This document shows, one piece after another, positions 35,601-59,731 of a stretch of DNA of 64,000 nt; position 1 is the first letter of the stretch, and every line of letters begins with the position of its first letter. The position numbers and the translations under genes are program-made. The stretch is taken from positions 6,736 through 70,735 of IMG/VR virus record IMGVR_UViG_2585427684_000001; one strand, 5' to 3'. Under the pieces are notes generated by a model that saw nothing but the letters and a program-made list of their open reading frames with translations, was not told the origin of the DNA and did no database searches. The DNA comes from a virus (lineage: Duplodnaviria > Caudoviricetes).

Positions 35601-37188
35601 CGAGGCTATCGGCGGGTCAGGGTCAAACCTGATGCCAGCGGAGTACTCCACGTTCACTGACTCGCTACCGGTCTTCCGAAGCCAATCCGGCTTAGTGTTC
35701 AGTGAAGTGGCAGACGCTGCGGCGTACAGCGGCAGGCTGCTCAAGGTGGAGTCTAACGCCGGGTCTGGCTGGACGTGGCTGGCAAATAGCCCCACCGACT
35801 ACAACCTGCGCTTGGTAACCGGGCGACAGTACATCGTCTCGTTCTGGGCCAAAGGCAGCGCGGCCCATAACGTGGCGGTCCGTATGCGCTTCCAGAACAC
35901 CGCGGGCGGCGAAAGCGAGGTGGTCTTCGCCAACGTGAACGTGGGCCTGGAGCTGGCGCGGTACAGCGGTGTGTTCACGGCTCCTGCCGCGCTGGCTGGG
36001 CCTGCCTGTGTGGTGCTGTTCACGCAGTCAGCAGGTAAATCCGGGTCTACGTGGTTCGACGGTTTCATGGTCGAGGAGAAGATCGGTGAATCGACGGCGC
36101 CCTCTGCCTTCACCCCTGGCACCTCAACGCGCCAGGCCGCTGGTCAAGCGCTTGCGGTATCGGCTTTGGATACCAAGGTTACGCAGCAGGGTGCCAAGAT
36201 CGAGTCGGAGGCCAAGCGCACGGACGGGCTGTACACGTCAGTGGGTAACGCCAATTCAGCGATTCAGGATGAAACGACTGCTCGCGCCAGTGCCGACTCA
36301 GCCCTGAGCACTCGAATCAACACCGCCCAGGCGAAAGCCAATGAAGCGGCGGCGGCTGTCCAGAGTGAGGTGCAAGCACGGGCCGATGCCGATGGCGCTC
36401 TTTCCAAGCGCGTTGAAACGGCCCAGGCAACGGCGGGTAACGCCAATGCTGCAGTTCAGCAGGTCGCTACAGCGCAGTCCGACATGAAAGGGATGCTCAA
36501 CGCGCAGTACACCATGCGTGTGCAGATCAACAACCAGATGGGCGTGCACCATTGGGGCGGGTTTGGCATCGGCATCAACGAGCAAAACGGGGTGGTGCAA
36601 TCGGCCTTCGTGGTCTATTCGGACCAGTTCGTGTTGCTCAACGCCAACGGGGGAGGGCTTTCGTCGCCATTCTCCGTGGTTGGCGGACAGACGTTCATCT
36701 CCGACGCCTATATCCGGAACGCGAGTATTGGCACCGCCAAGATCGCCAACGGTGCAATCGCCAATGCCCAGATCCAAGACGCGGCCATCACCAACTCGAA
36801 GATCGGCAACCTACAGGTGGACACGCTCAAGATCGGTAACGAGGCAGTGACCATCCCCCGTTACGCTGGCTATGCCCCTCGCTTCAACTGCAACGGGAGT
36901 TGGCAGACGCCGCTGACCATTACGTTCTACATGCCTCAGCCTGGCATGGTTTACATCAACTACTGCGCAACGTTCCTATCGAACGGCACCCAGTTCTACC
37001 AGTACCGCCTGGTCCTTGATGGAAACATGATCGCTGAATCTGTCGCGAACTGGTCGGACAGCTCCATCACCCTGGCCTCTGGACAGTACGTGGGAGCAGG
37101 CCAGCACACGGTCGATTTCTCGATCCTGGGGGCGGTAGGCGTGGTGCTCTCTTATCAGAACCTTATGGTGCAAGGAATCATGAGATGA
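29614..37188 (+). CDS. Tail tip/host-specificity protein J, very long (~2520 aa)
   Basis: J N-terminus (GSKGG, YTNNPAW), FN3-like and coiled-coil segments, four beta-rich inserted modules. Confidence 0.93.
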   Translation: MVQVSKRAPQQSRAARKRQVVGSKGGEKKQKQPSIASNSVPSIAVARLLYLWSWGPIVGPVNGLRSVKLDGTQVMADDGTMNYPGVKWQFRSGELNQERMTGITESSNEIAVGQLLLTTAPYVHTISNPMLDAVRLRFSWPQLQRQDQSGNIDGVRIEYAIDVSTDNGPFQQVLVSEVNRKNVTKYERSHRIELPAGSRWTVRARRITPEANSSLTQDGMYVEALSEVVDSDQEYPLTAVSCVEYDAEQFGGDIAKIAVLMRGRIVRVPANYNAETRTYATSGVGTTNGVWDGTFKEAYTNNPAWVFYDLVLHPYYGLGDRIDPSMINRWSLYRIGQYCDQLVPDGMGGQEPRFTCNLYLQKQAEAWAVIQDLAAIFHGLAFWDGSQITVNADLPQDPVYNYTLSQILDDGAVKYTGSKLRERHSQAMVSFDDPARGYDTDKEPVFDEDAIAEYGVREISVEAVGCTSRGQAQRAGQWALMTEQLQLRGATFRVGLDGYIPKPGKVITLSDPMLAGRDNGGRIAAVTGRVVTLDRDINVPSGARLLVNLPSGRSEVRQIRSVTGRQITVVAEFSEAPQPECAWVLDFDDLKVMQFYVRNITRPEWHQFQLECIQYEPGKFDAIDFGTIIDDRPISVLPPGVQDAPARVLIGSHSAVDQGIAVTTMSISWDAAPGAVAYDVEWRWGSRDWVRMPRTGQLTADVRGAYAGQYLARVRAVSAMDVASIPTTSALTEVAGKTTPPPAVTFLRAESLIFGIKVTIGYPAGASDTQRAELWYGPGSDLAAATKLTDLAYPQADHTLQGLRAGQTFYFWARLVDRSGNIGPWFPVDAPGIKGQASADAGPILEQIAKQIGESELGKELTSKIEKIALIDGNGPGSVNERVGAAKTELAKQISEVNNALGTVKGNLEQQITAVSADVSAAKTELQQQIANVSALAGSLPYRKDKAYSVGQSVLGSDGKLYQALKAVPLNTPPPNATYWTDVGQAVVTANGMAARVSKVETDVSTLDGKVTAQASQISGLQSSLTTTNGNVSAAQQAAQDAATLAGGKGKVIVQSAAPAVADRLAQNLWIDTTSNGNTPKRWTGSAWVAVTDKVATDAAAAAAGALALAQTKADASVVSSLTTRVSDAEGKLTSQANKLDGMQTSIDGKASSQALQQVTSRVTATEQKDAAQDQQLTSQSQALTSLTDSVSKKADASTVQALSNEVKTQGQIQTAQGQALTRIDTKLLASQDNSPTKVYQSVFSDMAQDQWVSTNSGAGSSASFGTPTGITRGAALILDGGAGNRTWWGASTRKIRFDPTRLYKLTIRVQQVAMGTGSPGTYAGLDCYAEDGKTRVSTMGTGSVGSSHYVLLSNRKLGQGEWATAEVYVKGHTTGSEGGAAGAGTLADPKRLKEGAAWFSPMIIAGYSDVGGQVVVDYFDIEDATEQAQIDAGATATSAIGARVERTEQGLSSQSGAITVLINTLNATNQDLARKAESSAVQSLNNVVSQQGAAITANGQALTGINASLSNLGASGVNLVPAEYCAFTKDLPPMYSNGGVNVTTVADPQALKGYALRADSRAVDSHTFGLNIGFNASGCNMDFKPGKYLVSFYARTETAGHMVGAYARVLLADGTSFKTSNAPTFALTTSWARYSGVIDLTDPAYTGTQMQLAIQGNRSGVANRVSYFDRFMFEAVVNEQKSPSTFSMGNSFDQAQANALANTALTGRVERAESGVTSVSGQLTELYNSIGDVGAENLVFNPSFERVDPGTPGMADGWWYDGTGSTTRVPSLVPSSLASGTAQRLDVTGLTSTTWARFYVKSQFRFKPVPGKTYTASVYMRGTAGLRILPQVYGTNEAGAGTESWAAARTDATDSWVRLTVTFTPGTATTKIYAAVVVYGGGSANSGFIEADRYQIEEGVRATGWRDNGQVNSFESSALSSAVTGLSSTVSQQGSTLSSVSSRTTNLENAVNSTSSGLPSKASTSALQSLTGRVTAAEGGLTAANSSITRIGSQVEAIGGSGSNLMPAEYSTFTDSLPVFRSQSGLVFSEVADAAAYSGRLLKVESNAGSGWTWLANSPTDYNLRLVTGRQYIVSFWAKGSAAHNVAVRMRFQNTAGGESEVVFANVNVGLELARYSGVFTAPAALAGPACVVLFTQSAGKSGSTWFDGFMVEEKIGESTAPSAFTPGTSTRQAAGQALAVSALDTKVTQQGAKIESEAKRTDGLYTSVGNANSAIQDETTARASADSALSTRINTAQAKANEAAAAVQSEVQARADADGALSKRVETAQATAGNANAAVQQVATAQSDMKGMLNAQYTMRVQINNQMGVHHWGGFGIGINEQNGVVQSAFVVYSDQFVLLNANGGGLSSPFSVVGGQTFISDAYIRNASIGTAKIANGAIANAQIQDAAITNSKIGNLQVDTLKIGNEAVTIPRYAGYAPRFNCNGSWQTPLTITFYMPQPGMVYINYCATFLSNGTQFYQYRLVLDGNMIAESVANWSDSSITLASGQYVGAGQHTVDFSILGAVGVVLSYQNLMVQGIMR

Positions 37189-37571
37189 CCCAATCACCCC
37201 CAGCCGGGGAGGTAGTGCTCTACAACGAGCGCGGAGAAATCCGTATGCGGGGCTACATGTCCCAGCTCGAGGCGGAGCTCAACGCGAAGCGAACAGGATT
37301 CTCCTATCTATTCGCCCGGGCCAGCGAGCTCGAGCAGTTCGTCAGCGCGGGCAAGATCGTGCCTCGACCCAAGATGGCACTGCAGCTGGTTGGCATGACC
37401 CTTAAAGGCGTGCCCGCCAAAGCCGTGCTCAACATTGAGGGCGTGGAGTACACCGCCGACGGCAGCGACATCGAGTTGGGCTTCAGCCTGCCCGGCGAGT
37501 ATGAGGTCGTGATCGACCTGTGGCCTTACCAGAGCGAGGTATTGAGCGTTGAAAATCGAGCACAAAAGTGA
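37185..37571 (+). CDS. Tail-associated hypothetical protein
   Basis: ATGA coupling to J; PGEYEVVIDLWPY. Confidence 0.75.
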   Translation: MTQSPPAGEVVLYNERGEIRMRGYMSQLEAELNAKRTGFSYLFARASELEQFVSAGKIVPRPKMALQLVGMTLKGVPAKAVLNIEGVEYTADGSDIELGFSLPGEYEVVIDLWPYQSEVLSVENRAQK

Positions 37572-37719
37572 CCATGCCAAAGCCCGGGCCACTGACTACC
37601 CGGCGATCGAGGAACAGCTGGACATGCTTTGGCACGCGATGGACCAAGGAACAATGCCCAAGGCCGAGCCGTTCTATTCCACGATCCAACGAGTAAAACA
37701 GCAGTACCCAAAAAACTGA
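37549..37719 (+). CDS. Small tail-associated protein (56 aa, TTG start)
   Basis: RBS GAGGT; YPAIEEQLDMLWHAMDQG..VKQQYPK. Confidence 0.6.
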   Translation: MKIEHKSDHAKARATDYPAIEEQLDMLWHAMDQGTMPKAEPFYSTIQRVKQQYPKN

Positions 37720-37776
37720 CGGTCAATTACCCCACAAGCCCGCCACGCGCGGGCATTTTTTTGCCTGGAGAAAACT

Positions 37777-38004
37777 ATGCCCTACGTAGCCATCAACCTG
37801 ACCAACGATTACGACCCTGACAACAAGACCCGCTTCACCACCCTGGAACAGGCCAAGGAGCGTATCCAAGCCGGCCTGCGCCAGTTTCCCAGCCACCGGT
37901 TCGTTACAGCCGAGCTCCTCGAGGAGTTCACCGCCGAAGTCGTTATCACTGGCAGCGAGCCAGCCAAGCCCGATCCGGTACCGGACGAGAGCACCGAGGC
38001 CTGA
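37777..38004 (+). CDS. Phage hypothetical protein
   Basis: RBS GGAG after a terminator; 75 aa. Confidence 0.65.
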   Translation: MPYVAINLTNDYDPDNKTRFTTLEQAKERIQAGLRQFPSHRFVTAELLEEFTAEVVITGSEPAKPDPVPDESTEA

Positions 38005-38098
38005 GCCCCACGCTTAACCATACAGCCCGCTCGGCGTGGGCAATTTGTGCCTGTCGAGTTACTTTCCAAAGCGCCTCATGCGCGAGTAGCGGTGCCTC

Positions 38099-38308
38099 TC
38101 ATTTCCTGCCGATTTGAAACTTCAGTTTATCGGTTGGCCACCAGTTGAAAGACGGGGGTGGCTCATAGCAGCCTGGCTGGTTAGCAGGCGAAGCATCACA
38201 CCGAACGGTGTATCCCTTCGAGCCTAGCTCTGTAGTGTTATCGCTGGAGCTGTAGTGAGAGCAGCCCGCCAGCGCGGTGAATATGAGTGATGCAGCAACA
38301 CGCTTCAT
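38099..38308 (-). CDS. Small lipoprotein (family B, copy 1)
   Basis: Lipobox LAGC; CDASPANQPGCY. Confidence 0.8.
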   Translation of the reverse strand: MKRVAASLIFTALAGCSHYSSSDNTTELGSKGYTVRCDASPANQPGCYEPPPSFNWWPTDKLKFQIGRK

Positions 38309-38390
38309 AAGAAATTCCTTCCATAGATTGCGCCATCGTATCGCTTAGCAGTGGCGGGTAGGGCCGTAGATCTCAGAGACCACCAGTGAT

Positions 38391-38588
38391 TCAAGAAAGC
38401 GAGTCGAGCAGCTTGTTGAGGATGCCTTCCTGATACTGCCGGTTGTAGCAGCCCGGTTGATTCGGAGGAGTGTCATCGCACGCAATCTCATGCTTGTTGG
38501 TCGTGCTCCCATAAGTGCTGTTGGAAAAGTGGGAGCAACCAGTAAGCAGGTAGCTGAATAGCGCTAGTGCAAAAAATCCATTTTTCAT
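38391..38588 (-). CDS. Small lipoprotein (family B, copy 2)
   Basis: Lipobox LTGC; CDDTPPNQPGCY; real start MKNGFF inside a longer track ORF. Confidence 0.8.
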   Translation of the reverse strand: MKNGFFALALFSYLLTGCSHFSNSTYGSTTNKHEIACDDTPPNQPGCYNRQYQEGILNKLLDSLS

Positions 38589-38690
38589 ACCCAGTCTCGC
38601 GTAACGGATGATGCAGATTGGACGTTCGTGCAACAAATAAGGCACATCCGGCCCGCCCAGCGCGGGCTTTTTTTCGTCCGGAGAAAACCT

Positions 38691-39137
38691 ATGACCACAC
38701 CACGCGGTGTCCGCAATAACAACCCAGGGAACATCGATTACAACCCGCGAAACGCCTGGCAGGGGCAGTTGGGCCTGGAGGTAGGCCTGGCCAAGCCGCG
38801 CTTCGCCCGCTTCGACCATCCAGAGAACGGCATCCGCGCCCTGGGCAAGCTGCTGCTCAACTACCGGGGCAAGGATGGGATGCCCGGCGTTGGCCGTCCT
38901 GGCATCGACACCCCGCTGGAGTTCATCAACCGCTGGGCGCCGGCGAGCGAGAACGACACCAATGCCTACGCCCAGGCCATCGCAAAGCGTCTGGGCGTCG
39001 GTGTGCGCGACTCGATCGACATCTCTAAGCCGCAGATCCTGCGCGAACTGGTGGTCGGCATCATCGTGCACGAGAACGGCACCAACCCGTATCCGTCGAC
39101 GCTGATCGATGAGGGCATCAGGCGGGTCCTGACGTGA
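38691..39137 (+). CDS. Putative endolysin
   Basis: RGVRNNNPGNI..RWAPASENDT..HENG; directly upstream of the spanins. Confidence 0.75.
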   Translation: MTTPRGVRNNNPGNIDYNPRNAWQGQLGLEVGLAKPRFARFDHPENGIRALGKLLLNYRGKDGMPGVGRPGIDTPLEFINRWAPASENDTNAYAQAIAKRLGVGVRDSIDISKPQILRELVVGIIVHENGTNPYPSTLIDEGIRRVLT

Positions 39138-39640
39138 GCCCCTGGGTCGGTTTAGCAGCTGGGTTGGTGCTGGTGGCCAGCCACTGGGGCGCCTACGAAC
39201 ACGGCCGAAGCGTCGAGCAGGCGAAGGCCGACCAGGCCTCGGCCCAGCGCGATAGTGGCGACCGTCTTGCGGATGTGATCGGCGAGCGTGGCGCCCGTCA
39301 GCAGGAACATCAACGCGCCCAGGCGCAGGAGGAGGCGAGAGGCCATGGTCATGAGGAAAGATCTATTGCGAGTGCTGGCGCTGCTGGCGCCGATGCTTCT
39401 GGTCAGCGGCTGCGCGACGACGGCGCCAAGTTCGCCGCCGCCGTCAGTTGCCTCGGCACGGATACCGCCGCTGTCGCCCGAGGCCAGGCAGCCAGCCGCG
39501 CCGCCATGGTGCTCTCCGACCTGCTCGCACGGGCTGATGCTCGAGCGGGAGAACTGGCGAAGGCTTATGACCAAGCCCGAATAGCAGGGGAGCAGTGCCA
39601 GCGAGAATACGACGCCCTGTCAGCGACTGGAGAGCGATAG
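39134..39640 (+). CDS. Rz-like i-spanin (DUF2514-like)
   Basis: N-terminal TM, coiled coil, AGEQCQREYD. Confidence 0.85.
   Translation: MSPWVGLAAGLVLVASHWGAYEHGRSVEQAKADQASAQRDSGDRLADVIGERGARQQEHQRAQAQEEARGHGHEERSIASAGAAGADASGQRLRDDGAKFAAAVSCLGTDTAAVARGQAASRAAMVLSDLLARADARAGELAKAYDQARIAGEQCQREYDALSATGER
39351..39584 (+). CDS. Rz1-like o-spanin embedded in Rz
   Basis: Lipobox VSGC; Pro-rich; CSPTC. Confidence 0.8.
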   Translation: MRKDLLRVLALLAPMLLVSGCATTAPSSPPPSVASARIPPLSPEARQPAAPPWCSPTCSHGLMLERENWRRLMTKPE

Positions 39641-39788
39641 AACCCACCAAGAAATTCGAAGGCTTCATGCAAAGAGAGCGGCCACCGGGGATGCGTCAAC
39701 ATCCCTGCTGACCGCCGGACCCGCAGACCATACCTGCAAGCCCAGCTAAAGCTCCCGCTCTGTGCACAAAGCACGGCGAGCCTAGCAC

Positions 39789-39804
39789 CTGTTCATCCAT
39801 ACAG
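39789..39804. promoter_or_regulatory. LexA (SOS) box
   Basis: CTGTTCATCCATACAG, 14 nt before the methylase start. Confidence 0.8.
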
Positions 39805-39818
39805 TAAAGGTTTGCAAA

Positions 39819-40613
39819 TTGAACAACCCAATCATTCCCTGGATGGGCGGCAAGCGCCGCCTGGCCGATCGCCTTATTCCGCTGTTCCCTGCTCACGAAT
39901 GCTACGTCGAAGTGTTCGCCGGCGGCGCTGCTCTTTACTTCATGCGGCCGCAGCCTGCGCCAGTCGAAGTGCTAAACGACCTGAACGGCGATCTGGTCAA
40001 CCTCTATCGGGTGGTGCAGAACCACCTAGAGGAGTTCGTTCGCCAGTTCAAGTGGGCGCTGTCCTCTCGCCAGATTTTCGAGTGGCAGAAGATGGCCAGG
40101 CCTGAAACCCTCACGGACATCCAGCGCGCCGCCCGATTCTTCTACCTGCAGCAACATGCCTTCGGAGGCAAGGTGAGCGGGCAGACCTTTGGAACGGCCA
40201 CTACCGGACCGGCCATCAATCTGCTGCGCATCGAAGAAAATCTGTCAGCAGCCTGGCAGCGCCTGTCGGGCACCTATGTCGAGAACCTCTCCTGGCTCGA
40301 CTGCGCGCAAAGGTACGACCGGGCGCACACGTTCTTCTACATGGATCCCCCTTACTGGCAGACCGCAGGCTATGGCCTGGACTTTCCATTCGAGCAGTAC
40401 GAGCGCATGGCCGAATTCATGCGGAGTTGCAAGGGCAAGGTGATGGTGAGTATCAATGACCATCCGGACATACGCGAGGCCTTCGCTGGCTTCCATATTG
40501 AAAGAACTGACATTCGCTACATCACGGCCAATCAGCGCAACGGGCAGGCCGACGTAACTGGTGAGCTTATCATCATGAATTGGAAGCCTTCCGAACTGGG
40601 GCAGCTTTTCTGA
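39819..40613 (+). CDS. DNA adenine methylase (D12/Dam class)
   Basis: PWMGGKRR, EVFAGG, NDLNG, DPPY. Confidence 0.95.
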   Translation: MNNPIIPWMGGKRRLADRLIPLFPAHECYVEVFAGGAALYFMRPQPAPVEVLNDLNGDLVNLYRVVQNHLEEFVRQFKWALSSRQIFEWQKMARPETLTDIQRAARFFYLQQHAFGGKVSGQTFGTATTGPAINLLRIEENLSAAWQRLSGTYVENLSWLDCAQRYDRAHTFFYMDPPYWQTAGYGLDFPFEQYERMAEFMRSCKGKVMVSINDHPDIREAFAGFHIERTDIRYITANQRNGQADVTGELIIMNWKPSELGQLF

Positions 40614-41753: not shown

Positions 41754-43022
41754 TCAATTGGCGAAAATGTCACCCCAACGAATGTAGAAAAGCAAATACG
41801 GATCTCGAATATCCAGCACCTCACTTTCATTGTCCCATTCGATGATATTGGCGTTTGCAGAGTCATTCGCGATTTTTGCGATATGGCTACAGGCGCCAGT
41901 AATACTTGAGCCGCTCGGGGAGGAACCGTTACACAGAGCTCTCACACCAGCAGTAAGATCATCGTACCGCAACGTAAGTCGAGGGGGATCGTTGGCCAAG
42001 CAACGCATAATCAACGAGTAGACATCACCCTGCTGACCGTCTTTAAGTATGTATCTGATCCTGTCTGAGCCGCGTACTCGTGGACCTTCCAACATTTTTT
42101 CAACAGTAGAGCTGTAGTCCGCTGAAAGCACTGCCCTTCGACATATGTTTTCGAAGGAGTTCGCGGCGAACAGCAGATTAGTTCCAGCAGGCTGTTGCTC
42201 TCGCATGTCATGTTCAAAGCAAGCATTAAGGCACAACTGCTGCATGAGCTGCGGAGACCCTGCTGCTTGCTCAGCAAAACTATTTGAAAGCTGGTCGTCA
42301 TGCTTGATGCCTAAAGCATTGAAACCTAGTTCAGCGATTTTTTTTAGATTTTCTCGGTTCCAGTAGCTGAAATCAATGTTAACTATGCGTCCGCGAAGAT
42401 CTGGATTGCCTCTGACTACATCGTCGGAGTGGTAAGGGACAGATGCCACGATAAAGGTAACGCCTTGGCGGATTGCCTCTTTAATCTGGCGCGCAATTTC
42501 TGTTTGAGTGTTACGAGATATGTAGTGGAAATCGTCAATAAAAATCACGAAGTCCAGCTCTTTTAGGGTGTTGATGAGTATTTGAAGATAATCGGTGGGC
42601 CGATCAAATGTAAGGGTTTCACCTTGCGCATTTTGATGCGATGCTGAGCCTTCTGCCCCAGCTTTTGCGAAGATCAATGAGCCGCTCGCGGAGAGCTTCA
42701 CTGTAAATCCATTTGTTGAATTGGCGGAAGAGCTTCTGGAAGTTGGGATGTCAATCCCAAGTTGGTCGAAGATACGGGTCCATAGAATTCCTATCGAATC
42801 TATGCCAGCTCCAGTGACCTGAATGATCTTCTCTTTGCCCAGGCTTTGCTCAACAAAGACAGTCTTACCTGACTTCGATGGGCCAGAAATCGATATCAAC
42901 ATCGTGCCTGTATCAATCGTATCGTGGAGCACCTGATGCTTGGCTGTCAGGTGATCGTTGACGAAGGTGTAGCTAGGAAAGCCCCCGGGGGTAAAAATGT
43001 CCTTGGCTTTTAACATGTCCAT
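41754..43022 (-). CDS. P-loop ATPase (STAND/AAA+-like), no obvious effector domain
   Basis: GPSKSGKT, IFIDDFH, GRI, GSPQLMQ; low GC. Confidence 0.85.
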   Translation of the reverse strand: MDMLKAKDIFTPGGFPSYTFVNDHLTAKHQVLHDTIDTGTMLISISGPSKSGKTVFVEQSLGKEKIIQVTGAGIDSIGILWTRIFDQLGIDIPTSRSSSANSTNGFTVKLSASGSLIFAKAGAEGSASHQNAQGETLTFDRPTDYLQILINTLKELDFVIFIDDFHYISRNTQTEIARQIKEAIRQGVTFIVASVPYHSDDVVRGNPDLRGRIVNIDFSYWNRENLKKIAELGFNALGIKHDDQLSNSFAEQAAGSPQLMQQLCLNACFEHDMREQQPAGTNLLFAANSFENICRRAVLSADYSSTVEKMLEGPRVRGSDRIRYILKDGQQGDVYSLIMRCLANDPPRLTLRYDDLTAGVRALCNGSSPSGSSITGACSHIAKIANDSANANIIEWDNESEVLDIRDPYLLFYIRWGDIFAN

Positions 43023-50548: not shown

Positions 50549-51031
50549 GGTTATCTATACCTCAAGGTATGGTGTTTCCTAGCATGACTAGATCACAAAG
50601 TGTTGCGTACTTGGCTGAGCTGAAAAGACCACCATTGGAGTCGATGAACTTTAGTGATGGTGAGGTCTATCGGTGATCTGCCTGGAAAAATGATACTGAT
50701 AGTTTCCCCAGTTGCGTTTATATTTACGGTGTTGCAATTAGGTCAGATATCTTGGGTCGAATTTGGTCGAAGACTTCGATCGGTGAAGCACTTTTGAGTA
50801 CGCAGAAGCTTACGTAAAAGGAATGTGCCTGCAGCGAAGTAAAGAGGATATGGAGGCTAGTTATAATTAAACCCACATGGAGGCGTTTTCACCTCCTTCA
50901 AAGAATTCGGTTGGACATGGAAGCGTTCATGTTTTGAGTACGGCAGGTGGTGGCTACTGGCTCAGCGCCATGCTTTGCGGCGATTGGCGATTTTTGATGT
51001 AATGCCCGACCATCTCACAGGAAGGAACCTT

Positions 51032-51199
51032 ATGAAGCACACCATGATTGGCGCAATTCTCGTCGCCGTTACTGCGCTGTTGCTGAGCGGCTGCTTTGGC
51101 TCAACAGAAGAGCAAAAAGCAAAGGCGCAGCAGGAATCCAGCGACAGGCTATGGGACATCCCACCTCCGAAGACACCAGATAAGGGTTTCAAGCCCTGA
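51032..51199 (+). CDS. Small lipoprotein moron (family A, copy 2)
   Basis: Lipobox LSGC; EQKAKAQQESSD.LWDIP shared with 2393-2563. Confidence 0.8.
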   Translation: MKHTMIGAILVAVTALLLSGCFGSTEEQKAKAQQESSDRLWDIPPPKTPDKGFKP

Positions 51200-55445: not shown

Positions 55446-55857
55446 CCTACTGATAACCGGGACATAGTAGCTGATGGCCGCAATTTTCCGGCACACGTCA
55501 ATTCATGCGGATACAAGGCGCGGTGAATCAGAACGACGACAGAGACTGCGATCGTTTGAGTGCAGCACAGGTGGTGATAAACGTGCAGGCCATGCTTAGG
55601 CGGTTTCAGAGATGGTTTACACCAGCGCGCAAACGATGGGCGGGGGGGGCATTGATCGTTATCGCGTTGGTGGGTATGGCAATGAATCCCGCGAGCAGGT
55701 GGCCTTGGGTGTTGGCGACAGGCGTGATATGGCTGCTCGCGGCCTGGTTACCCAGAAGATGACAGATCGTTAGTCGCAACTGCTGGTGCTCGATCCGCTG
55801 TCGCTAGCGTGGCTGTCCCCGATAGGGCGCTATTGCTGACGTGATGGCAGTCGTAGT

Positions 55858-56370
55858 GTAACCGTCCGGCAACCACATCTTCCCCACACGACTGCTGAAG
55901 GCCATGGAGCCCCCTAAGTTTGAGTGGACACCATTTCTGGTCCATCAAGCGGATTTCCTATGCAGCCTCGTTTTCTGGGCTCGTGGAATGGCTAGTTGGT
56001 CTGCGATGACTTTGCAGGTTACAACGCCAGCTTCGTACAGGGCTTGTTCGACATTGGCTGTATGGCCCATGTCCGTCGCAAATTCTTTGACCTGTTCGCT
56101 TCGAATGTGCCCATCCATAACAATCAGGGGGGAAATCAGATTCGCCCATGGGCCCTCGGTCATTCGAACTGGCTCCTTGCCAGGTCGTTACGCAGCGGTA
56201 AACGGGCAGCGGCGATCATGAGCCTGATCCAGTCAGCACGGCTGAATGGACATGATCCATACGCCTACCTGAAAGACGTCCCTAGTCGTCTGCCAACCCA
56301 AAGGGTAAGCGAGTTTCCTGATCTGCTTGCGCATACGTGGGCGCCTGAAGCGAGATGAGCCGCTTCCAAT
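55858..56370 (+). mobile_element. IS66-family remnant (internally deleted)
   Basis: Left end GTAACCGTCC; TnpC fragments CDDFAGY..GCMAHVRRKF and SLIQSARLNGHDPYAYL. Confidence 0.8.
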
Positions 56371-56426
56371 TGCGGCTACATATCTGTAAATTCGCATATG
56401 CGTAGAATCGAATATAAAGGTTGGTC

Positions 56427-56777
56427 ATGCCCATTCAGCCGCCTATTTTCTTTAAATGCCTTGGTGACGAAACCCGCGCCCGGATCATGCTCATGCTCGC
56501 AGCTGAGGGTGAGCTGTGCGTCTGTGAACTGATTTGGGCACTCGACGACAGCCAGCCGAAGATCTCACGCCACCTGGCTCAGCTTCGTACCTGCGGGCTG
56601 CTGGAGGACCGTCGGCAGGGCCAATGGGTTTACTACCGTCTTCATCCGGAACTGCCTCTATGGGCACTGGATGTACTTCAGGCGACGCTCGAGGCTAACC
56701 GCACTTGGCTCGGTGATGACCAAGGTCGCCTTGCTTCCATGGAAGGTCGCCCGGTACGCCAGGTTTCCTGTTGCTAA
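56427..56777 (+). CDS. arsR: Arsenic-responsive repressor
   Basis: [20 protein letters not shown]; terminal CC. Confidence 0.95.
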
Positions 56778-56796
56778 GTGTTATTGGAGACCCGAG

Positions 56797-58086
56797 ATGT
56801 TGCTGGCAGTGTCTATTTTTCTGGTAACGCTGGTACTGGTGATCTGGCAACCCCGAGGGCTTGGCGTGGGTTGGAGTGCGTCTGCCGGAGCGGTGGTCGC
56901 GTTGCTAACTGGCGTTGTTGCGCTCAGTGATATCCCGGTGGTCTGGCACATTGTGTGGAACGCAACGGCGACGTTCATTGCGGTGATCATCATCAGCCTC
57001 CTGCTGGATGAGGCAGGCTTTTTCGAGTGGGTAGCGCTTCATGTGGCTCGTTGGGGGAGAGGCAGCGGGGCACGCCTGTTTGCACTAATGGTACTCTTGG
57101 GTGCAGCTGTCTCGGCCCTGTTTGCTAATGATGGCGCAGCATTGATTCTGACCCCCATTGTCATCGCAATGCTTACGGCGCTGCGCTTTAGCCCGGCAGC
57201 AACCTTGGCTTTCGTGATGGCTGCCGGCTTCATTGCCGACACTGCCAGCTTGCCGCTGGTTGTCTCGAACCTTGTGAACATCGTCTCTGCCGATTTTTTC
57301 GACATCGGATTTGGTCAGTACGCCTCGATTATGTGGCCGGTGAATCTGGCCAGTGTCGGGGCGACGCTAGGCATGCTTTGGTTGTTTTATCGAAAAGAGG
57401 TACCGCTGGCGTACTCACCCGAAGAACTACCGCGACCAGAAGAGGCCATCAAGGATCGCCATACGTTCATTGCTGGCTGGTGGGTGTTGCTGCATCTGCT
57501 AGTCGGTTTGTTCGCCCTTGAGCCCCTAGGCATACCGATCAGTGCTGTCGCCGCTGTATGCGCACTGGTGTTGCTGATAATTGCCGCGAAAGGGCATGTG
57601 ATCTCGACCCGCAAAGTCATGCTCAACGCACCCTGGCAGGTCGTATTGTTTTCACTTGGCATGTATCTGGTGATCTACGGCCTGAAGAATGCAGGGCTGA
57701 CAGAAGGACTCGGCTCATTGTTCGGCACCTTCGCCGATCATGGTCTGTGGGTTGCGACACTCGGCACCGGTTTCACGGCTGCGCTGCTGTCATCTGTCAT
57801 GAACAACATGCCCAGCGTGCTGATTGGTGCCTTGTCGATTCAGGACAGTGGCGCGACGGGGCTCGCCCACGAAGCCATGGTGTACGCCAACATCATCGGC
57901 TGCGACCTTGGCCCCAAGATAACCCCCATCGGTAGTCTGGCGACGCTGCTGTGGCTGCATGTCCTGGCTCAGAAAAACATCCGCATCACTTGGGGTTACT
58001 ACTTCAAGGTTGGCTGCGTAATCACTTTCCCCATTCTGCTGCTGACACTGGCAGCGCTTGCCGTGCGCTTGAGCATCAGCACGTAG
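56797..58086 (+). CDS. arsB: Arsenite efflux pump
   Basis: 429 aa; [31 protein letters not shown]. Confidence 0.97.
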
Positions 58087-58095
58087 GAGTAACTT

Positions 58096-58566
58096 ATGAA
58101 GATGCTGTTCATGTGTACGGCCAATAGCTGTCGCAGCGTCCTGTCCGAAGGACTGTTCAACCATGTTGCGCCGGACGGCTTCACGGCCATCAGTTCGGGC
58201 AGCCTCCCCAGCGGCAAACTCAATCCCCGTGCGGTGAGCACGCTGCAAGGACTGGGTGTCGACACGTCCGCCCTTTATAGCAAGGGATCAGAAGCGTTCG
58301 AGGACTCGCCACCCGATATCGTGATCACTGTGTGCGACAAGGCAAGTAGCGAAGCCTGTCCGGTGTATTTTGGCCCGGCCATCAAGAGCCACTGGGGGCT
58401 GCCTGACCCATCGGAAGTGGATGGCAGCGACGAGGCTATTCAGGTCGCATTCGACGCAACGGTTGAACACATCAAAAGGCGGTTCGCAGCGTTATTCGCG
58501 TTGGATCTGAAGACACTTCAAGGCGACGACCTGAAGCAGGCTTTGGATCGGATTGGAGCATTGTGA
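58096..58566 (+). CDS. arsC: Arsenate reductase (LMW-PTP/thioredoxin type)
   Basis: [22 protein letters not shown]. Confidence 0.93.
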
Positions 58567-59300
58567 TGAACGAGTTCGATATCGACTCTGCCGAGGCCTT
58601 TCCTGCCCTCGATCTGTTGCTGATGGATCTGCCCACTGCCGATAAGCTTAACCTGGCTGATGCGTCGAACGTCAAACCACGCATCCTTCTGCTCTATGGA
58701 TCGACCAGAGAGCGTTCGTTCAGTCGTCTCTTGACGCAAGAGGCCGCTAGACTGCTCCAGTACATGGGCGCCGAGACGGTGATTTTCGATCCGTCAGGTT
58801 TGCCCTTGCCGGATGACGCGCCAGTCGAACACCCGAAGGTACAAGAGCTGCGTAATCTGGTGCTGTGGTCAGACGGACAGGTATGGTGTTCCCCCGAGCG
58901 TCATGGCGCTATGTCCGGGGTATTCAAAGCGCAGATCGATTGGATTCCTTTGACCCTGGGTGCCGTGCGGCCCACCCAAGGCAAAACACTCGCGGTGATG
59001 CAGGTGTGCGGCGGGTCTCAGTCATTCAACGCTGTGAACCAGATGCGTGTGTTAGGTCGATGGATGCGCATGCTGACCATCCCGAATCAGTCGTCCGTGC
59101 CGAAGGCGTATCTGGAGTTCGACGATGCTGGCCGAATGAAACCTTCGCCGTATTATGACCGCGTGGTCGATGTGATGGAGGAACTGGTGAAGTTCACGCT
59201 GCTGGTTCGTGGCCGTGAGGGCTATTTGGTAGATCGATATTCGGAGCGAAAAGAAAGCGCTGAAGCTCTATCGGCCAGGATAAATCAACGCTCCATCTAG
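58563..59300 (+). CDS. arsH: NADPH-dependent FMN reductase ArsH
   Basis: [29 protein letters not shown]. Confidence 0.96.
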
Positions 59301-59539: not shown

Positions 59540-59731
59540 CTAGTCCTTTCTTAAAAGCCTGTTGAGCAGCCCCTCTTGGTGCACATTGTCGTAGCACCCA
59601 GGTTGATTAGGTGGCGTGGCGTCACAGGGGATATTTCGTTGATCCCAGCGACTTCCATAGGGGCTGTTGAAATAATGATTGCACCCCGTAAGCAGGGTCA
59701 CCACCAGCCCGATCAGTAGACCTTTATTCAT
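59540..59731 (-). CDS. Small lipoprotein (family B, copy 3)
   Basis: Lipobox LTGC; CDATPPNQPGCY..QEGLLN. Confidence 0.8.
   Translation of the reverse strand: MNKGLLIGLVVTLLTGCNHYFNSPYGSRWDQRNIPCDATPPNQPGCYDNVHQEGLLNRLLRKD

Follow-up and report, generated by a model that had tools for sequence, protein, structure and literature searches.

Among the ways in which siphophages shut their own door, the best understood relies on small periplasmic lipoproteins whose genes lie next to those for tail fibres. The Cor proteins of phages T1, phi80, N15 and HK022 bring about FhuA-dependent superinfection exclusion, and the classic genes of the Cor/Llp type have been described as matched to the receptor-binding protein. 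To our knowledge, the characterised examples of the Cor, Llp and Rtp45 type all come from enterobacterial phages. The cor gene of T1 is antisense and follows J and two small genes; its product carries a cysteine near both ends of the mature part. Llp and Rtp45 are periplasmic lipoproteins of about 6 kDa whose genes lie beside that for the receptor-binding protein; binding to FhuA or LptDE at its periplasmic face, they alter the shape of the extracellular loops (PMC9586334, PMC12685063). In Llp an intramolecular disulphide ties both termini together; the bond is conserved in the related Cor family (PMC9586334).

How does the locus studied here compare with these systems? The window, by which we mean the whole stretch of 64,000 nucleotides analysed, comes from an IMG/VR provirus record of 70.7 kb. 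Its late region is that of a lambda-like siphovirus, with a major head protein, a tape measure, homologues of L, K and I, and J. J is followed by three small genes of the plus strand; next come A and B, on the minus strand, and after them the endolysin and the Rz spanin (table 1). The three open reading frames picked out in a sequence-only reading of this DNA are all present where it placed them, on the minus strand, each with a lipobox and a loop. As that reading also held, A and B run antisense to the late operon, J on one side and the endolysin and Rz genes (38628–39640) on the other being plus-strand genes, and copy C does lie beside arsH, 240 bp from that gene (58563–59300).

Table 1. Positions in the window of the small lipoprotein genes and of the features that surround them.
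Feature	Position	Strand	Remarks
Central tail fibre J, 2541 aa	29563–37188	+	phrog_31, phrog_2589; last large tail-module gene; TMP, L, K and I homologues upstream
Three small late genes after J (128, 56, 75 aa)	37185–38004	+	convergent with the cassette
Left junction hairpin, degenerate	38025–38041		GCCCGCTCGGCGTGGGC, no T-run
Inserted A–B cassette	38042–38650		not in seven close relatives
Gene A	38099–38308	-	second cassette gene; 69-aa prelipoprotein, subtype T1
Gene A tail			Pro/Trp-rich, EPPPSFNWWP...KFQIG; subtype T1
Gene B	38391–38588	-	first cassette gene; 65-aa prelipoprotein, subtype T2
Endolysin	38628–39137	+	phrog_873; divergent from gene B
Right junction hairpin and T7, intrinsic-terminator-like	38651–38674	+	sole copy in cassette-less relatives
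Rz-like i-spanin	39134–39640	+	encloses Rz1
Rz1 o-spanin lipoprotein, embedded in Rz	~39345–39584, +1 frame	+	lipobox LVSGC, Pro-rich
ars genes (arsB, arsC-like, arsH) and IS66 transposase fragment	~55996–59300		insertion relative to locus L042
Gene C	59540–59731	-	third copy; 63 aa, subtype T2; outside the prophage proper, beside the inserted ars operon

The true start of the endolysin is probably the ATG at 38691. Terminator-like hairpins on the plus strand stand after the tail-side small genes (37738–37754) and immediately before the endolysin (38651–38674), and no holin-like gene adjoins the endolysin; the lysis genes may for these reasons need antitermination or a promoter of their own. 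In the cargo region of the prophage a 422-aa AAA-type ATPase (41754–43022, minus strand) matches the PADLOC candidate defence model PDC-S59 at E 5e-32.

Genes A, B and C each encode a basic N-terminus and a hydrophobic core followed by a lipobox, LAGC or LTGC. From the lipobox cysteine the proteins read CSHYSSS (A), CSHFSNS (B) and CNHYFNS (C) and, 20–21 residues further on, come the loops CDASPANQPGCY, CDDTPPNQPGCY and CDATPPNQPGCY. The motifs that they have in common, C-[SN]-H-[YF] and C-D-x-[ST]-P-[AP]-N-Q-P-G-C-Y, occur in proteins that are 32% (A and B) and 52% (B and C) identical; judged as a sequence pattern, this sharing is far beyond chance. Gene A has a ribosome-binding site, GGAAGGA, 7 nt upstream, and orthologues of it were found in related loci. 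The start of gene B is an ATG internal to a longer, spurious open reading frame. Its tail, NRQYQEGILNKLLDSLS, is helical by prediction, and its orthologues in related prophages are 74–97% identical.

Do these proteins belong to a family already described? Against Pfam, NCBIfam, PHROGs and PADLOC, A, B and C gave no match beyond signal-peptide noise, and the family profile met only signal peptides in the PDB, among them that of T5 Llp (8a60_B, E 0.8). Feature searches of the Atlas returned generic ‘lipoprotein’ clusters only, with an RzoQ cluster at rank 23. No member was found by tblastn, with four members as queries, in 50,697 sequenced phage genomes even at E = 10, a search that was possibly insensitive. 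An Rfam scan of 37000–40000 gave no RNA family. The same three sequences, made into a profile and run against 1.8 billion representative proteins, brought in some 20 further clusters at 50% identity, with E values of 1e-5 to 1e-14; the match P0018 (995 aa, 12 stretches), a repeat protein without the motif, was discarded. The suggestion, made from the letters of the window, that the family may be undescribed is thus upheld, Pfam, NCBIfam, PHROGs, PADLOC and the PDB having given no match beyond the signal peptide. By their sequences, A, B and C are members of an undescribed family of lipoproteins of 44–75 residues with a two-cysteine loop.

We surveyed 114 loci of this family, 63 from IMG/VR viral contigs and 51 from contigs of one genome per species, found by pattern scans and confirmed by tblastn; the genome contigs were scanned with the three-sequence alignment. 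All 51 genome loci are from Pseudomonas, except two labelled Pantoea or Enterobacterales (L094 and L095). The DNA of these two has a GC content of 61–62%, and L095, the one labelled Pantoea, has its nrdA/nrdB synteny in common with the Pseudomonas genome L111; on these grounds both labels are probably wrong. In the material searched, then, the family is found in Pseudomonas only. A genus-wide search detected it in 25 of the 301 Pseudomonas species genomes sampled, and it is therefore a patchy accessory gene. Where present it is under purifying selection, as follows from dN/dS values of 0.07–0.30 in ten orthologue pairs.

What is conserved in so small a protein? Across 95 aligned members the lipobox cysteine, both loop cysteines and the P, N, Q and P of the loop are invariant, while its G and the final Y are conserved in at least 90%. 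The core consists of the lipid-modified cysteine followed by x-x-[YF], a variable linker of 15–25 residues, and the loop C-[DN]-x-x-P-x-N-Q-P-G-C-[YH]. The two cysteines stand 10 residues apart in 95 of 95 members, and the 11-residue element that they bound is presumably closed by a disulphide. Subtypes are set by what lies C-terminal to the loop. The A-like subtype has a Pro/Trp-rich tail with a KFKLG-like end; the subtype of B and C has a short tail, xRQxQEGxLNxLxD, predicted to be helical; further subtypes have several other tails. In the tail-less subtype, precursors of 44–50 aa end directly after NQPGCY, and the mature form would be a lipopeptide of about 25–31 residues, against 25–55 residues after predicted signal peptidase II cleavage for the family as a whole. 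Since these tail-less members exist, loop and linker together represent, as far as the alignment tells, the functional minimum.

Lol sorting rules decide between the outer- and inner-membrane fate of a lipoprotein. The family lipobox is L-[AT]-G-C, the residue at +2 being S or N and +2 to +4 reading S/N-H-Y/F, and the lipobox region contains no known inner-membrane retention signal (no Lys-Ser at +3/+4). Under these rules, anchoring in the outer membrane is expected. AlphaFold2 predictions for A (95-sequence alignment) and B (21-sequence alignment) reached a pLDDT of about 60 and a pTM of 0.2, and predicted the signal helix only, plus a short C-terminal helix in B. Such a lack of an autonomous fold in the models fits a peptide that becomes ordered upon binding a partner.

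How far, then, does the resemblance to the enterobacterial proteins extend? Like Cor, the family consists of small two-cysteine lipoproteins and, as in T1, its gene in the window is a siphovirus accessory gene placed antisense after J and small genes. Like Llp (PDB 8a60) and Rtp45 it would be a small periplasmic lipoprotein, and its gene in prophages lies near J or the tail-fibre genes. The likeness to Cor drawn in the sequence-only reading therefore stands for size, lipobox, two conserved cysteines and gene position. It does not extend to homology: hhalign of the family profile with T1 Cor aligns just 25 columns of signal peptide, with no kinship beyond them, so that the analogy to Cor, Llp and Rtp45 is one of position and type only. 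With Llp, too, the only match is the signal peptide, and AlphaFold2 predicts no fold. The family cysteines, moreover, presumably close a short loop of 11 residues, whereas in Llp the disulphide ties both termini and the cysteines of T1 Cor likewise lie near the two ends. Unlike Cor, the family has a mature part of down to 25 residues, was found only in Pseudomonas and, as set out below, is uncoupled from the J allele.

Is the A–B pair an integral part of the phage? With the 128-aa gene that follows J as the entry point, we gathered 15 prophages closely related to this one. The pair is present in six of these; seven others lack exactly the A–B segment of about 0.6 kb, and the remaining two are without the family and have the slot arranged differently. 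The cassette-less relatives align to the window at 37085–38053 and resume at 38645–38651. Between the last tail-side gene and the endolysin they carry a single hairpin, GCCCGCCCAGCGCGGGC, followed by T7; in the window this junction hairpin is duplicated, with one copy at each end of the cassette. The GC content of family genes is 53%, against 58% for their loci. We conclude that A–B is a moron, an add-on cassette that is dispensable and horizontally mobile, and not a structural or lysis gene. It resembles the lambdoid morons (HK97 gene 15, lambda bor and lom) in being a discrete, dispensable insertion of lower GC at a terminator site, and differs from them in its protein family and in consisting of two paralogous genes. 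A prophage lipoprotein moron near tail-fibre genes is a known kind of element. Measured against the libraries searched, the novelty lies in the family as such, in how small its members can be and in the invariant loop.

With 87 upstream regions scored against controls, no enrichment of a consensus sigma-70 promoter was seen. The cassette itself has no consensus sigma-70 site upstream, and the minus-strand hairpin 3' of A is weak. Given the missing enrichment, the argument for expression of the cassette in lysogeny is the orientation of the genes.

A small lipoprotein adjoining a lysis cassette could be a lysis component, either an o-spanin or a lysis lipoprotein of the bacteriocin-release type. 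The 25–55 mature residues and the Pro/Trp-rich T1 tail do recall Rz1, and an RzoQ cluster was among the Atlas results given above. But the family genes lie on the strand opposite to Rz, seven near-identical prophages do without the cassette, and stand-alone copies exist in chromosomes. The phage, furthermore, has its own Rz1 embedded in Rz, so that the family does not supply its o-spanin. The o-spanin identity was rejected on account of the strand, the genuine Rz1 and the cassette-less relatives, and a lysis function of any kind, by now largely refuted, is highly improbable.

What neighbours does the family keep elsewhere? An endolysin was identified in 57 of the surveyed loci, and its sequence family is one of four (phrog_873, 181, 938/15649 and 7). 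Each of these 57 loci has the family gene oriented against the late genes and endolysin, and in 42 of them the endolysin is divergent, at most 400 bp upstream of the family gene. In the siphovirus-type loci and in one baseplate-type element the family gene is convergent with J or tail-fibre genes; in that element, a myovirus or tailocin, it follows baseplate wedge and tail-fibre genes. Some members are located past the lysis genes and not beside the endolysin. At many genome loci no phage genes are nearby and the family gene stands alone, between nrdA and nrdB or beside GGDEF-EAL, LysR, MFS, solute-binding or aquaporin genes, with no constant partner gene among such chromosomal loci. The earlier claim that copies are retained outside phages is borne out by these stand-alone genes between housekeeping genes, which, as gene contexts, fit a benefit to the host.

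Two side observations concern the survey. In several related prophages (L038, L044, L057–L061 and others) a 414-aa ‘lipase’ (phrog_6102) ends the lysis cassette, and near some of these ‘lipase’ genes no Rz homologue was detected; for that reason the protein may be an alternative disruptor of the outer membrane. An OprF homologue of P. fulva (L123) contains a Cys-rich linker, CPDTPANVTVDADGC, that has C-x-x-T-P-A-N...G-C in common with the family loop, CDATPANQPGC in many of the members. So short a resemblance is not significant; as a sequence likeness it offers a possible lead to mimicry.

The adjacency to endolysins raises the main rival to an exclusion function, namely that the protein inhibits muralytic enzymes. 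Its disulphide-closed loop would enter the catalytic groove of lysozyme-like enzymes, as does the CKPHDC loop of Ivy, and would shield the peptidoglycan of the lysogen against lysins carried by the virions of incoming phages, against T6SS muramidases or against endolysin leaking from the prophage itself. The conserved CKPHDC motif of Ivy, a precedent for such a loop, also controls bacterial lytic transglycosylases (PMC3660660). An invariant, presumably disulphide-closed loop would suit a conserved catalytic cleft; an envelope location would be shared with Ivy, MliC and PliC; and the immediate divergent neighbour in those 42 of 57 loci is an endolysin, the endolysins being of four sequence families. 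Yet the protein is several times smaller than these inhibitors and has no homology to them: Pfam gave no match to Ivy, MliC, PliC or LprI, and the sole NCBIfam match to a C-type lysozyme inhibitor, at E 0.03, covers residues 7–42, mostly signal peptide. Members placed beyond the lysis genes are not adjacent to an endolysin, the same endolysin is found with and without the cassette, and the chromosomal copies adjoin no hydrolase. Endolysin adjacency may, moreover, merely mirror a permissive operon boundary. We regard inhibition of muralytic enzymes as unlikely.

If the family were a matched receptor blocker of the classic type, how would it vary with J? One J allele (identity of at least 96% across the C-terminal 1200 residues) is accompanied by the cassette in the window and in L139, but not in L130, L134 and L137. 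Alleles of J that share just 35–60% identity in the variable middle part are likewise found with the cassette in some cases and without it in others, and identical cassettes go with different alleles. Nor is there a one-to-one relation between tail subtype and the clustering of J C-termini, one J cluster having three subtypes. Because the cassette is independent of the J allele, the family does not behave as a matched receptor blocker, and pairing with the phage's own receptor-binding protein is not supported. The proposal that the family had diversified to cover several receptors likewise finds no support, for the loop is invariant and some members stop at NQPGCY, with no tail. The invariance of the loop across siphovirus- and baseplate-type elements argues, at the level of sequence, for one conserved target and not for each phage's own receptor.

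Independence from tail-fibre and endolysin alleles would also suit lysogenic conversion unrelated to phages, in which a Bor-like lipoprotein alters the envelope physiology of the host (stress, serum or predator resistance, adhesion, vesiculation). The antisense moron architecture is that of lambda bor, and several species have stand-alone copies in the midst of housekeeping genes. Against this, no Bor, Lom or other family is matched (for the Bor family, no Pfam match up to E 1), the slot beside tail-fibre genes is kept across unrelated elements, and the very small peptide favours a ligand-like role. We consider a conversion function of this sort unlikely, to much the same degree as enzyme inhibition.

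Does the third copy owe its position to arsenic resistance? In locus L042 a C-type gene lies beside the same flanking genes without an ars operon, and directly abuts a homologue of 55505–55762. Since the ars operon is an insertion that L042 lacks, the arsH neighbourhood of C is incidental, and a functional link of C to arsH is not supported. Elsewhere, the C subtype (T2) is found in the tail/lysis slot of prophage L100 and, in L055, close to the end of a prophage. C and the ars operon recur in identical form on a sister record, the contig with loci L041 and L130, whose prophage is without A–B. To the right of the prophage are diverged copies of early-region DNA: 48988–49288 matches 14–287, with 83% identity, and 50963–51282 matches 2324–2647. 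This DNA seems, from such matches, to contain remnants of a related, decayed prophage, and C may accordingly be a survivor of that older element. A second, unrelated small lipoprotein (mature CFDSEDEQKAK...) is encoded at 2336–2563 and 50975–51199, both on the plus strand, with 77% DNA identity.

What, then, might the family do? Our preferred reading, which we hold tentatively and at somewhat less than even confidence, is by analogy with Llp and Rtp45: the protein would be a periplasmic mini-lipoprotein, anchored in the outer membrane, that binds a conserved envelope target and so excludes other phages. We infer that the cassette would be transcribed in the lysogen from its own promoter and be read antisense once late transcription begins. 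The anchored protein, with its loop closed by the disulphide, would dock through that loop onto a conserved, periplasm-facing component of the Pseudomonas envelope, most likely an outer-membrane beta-barrel or translocon. The cell would thereby become refractory to other phages or tailocins, much as Llp acts on FhuA and Rtp45 on LptDE. A bolder form of the proposal sees in the family a lipid-anchored, disulphide-cyclised peptide, at its smallest of about 25 mature residues, whose PxNQPGC loop would modulate one conserved and possibly essential Pseudomonas envelope machine (LptDE, BAM, a TonB-dependent transporter or lysozyme-fold hydrolases). In that form the idea is quite improbable; if true, it would define a new class of minimal exclusion factor and provide a peptide lead.

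The natural occurrence of near-isogenic prophages with and without the cassette makes for an easy and clean comparison. Should the family do nothing to phages, it would caution against annotating exclusion factors by position alone. Were the loop to target muramidases or a conserved machine of the outer membrane, it would provide a compact, natural ligand. And if the exclusion reading is true, the family would be a Pseudomonas counterpart of the enterobacterial lipoproteins, and its functional element would stand out as unusually small and very rigidly conserved.
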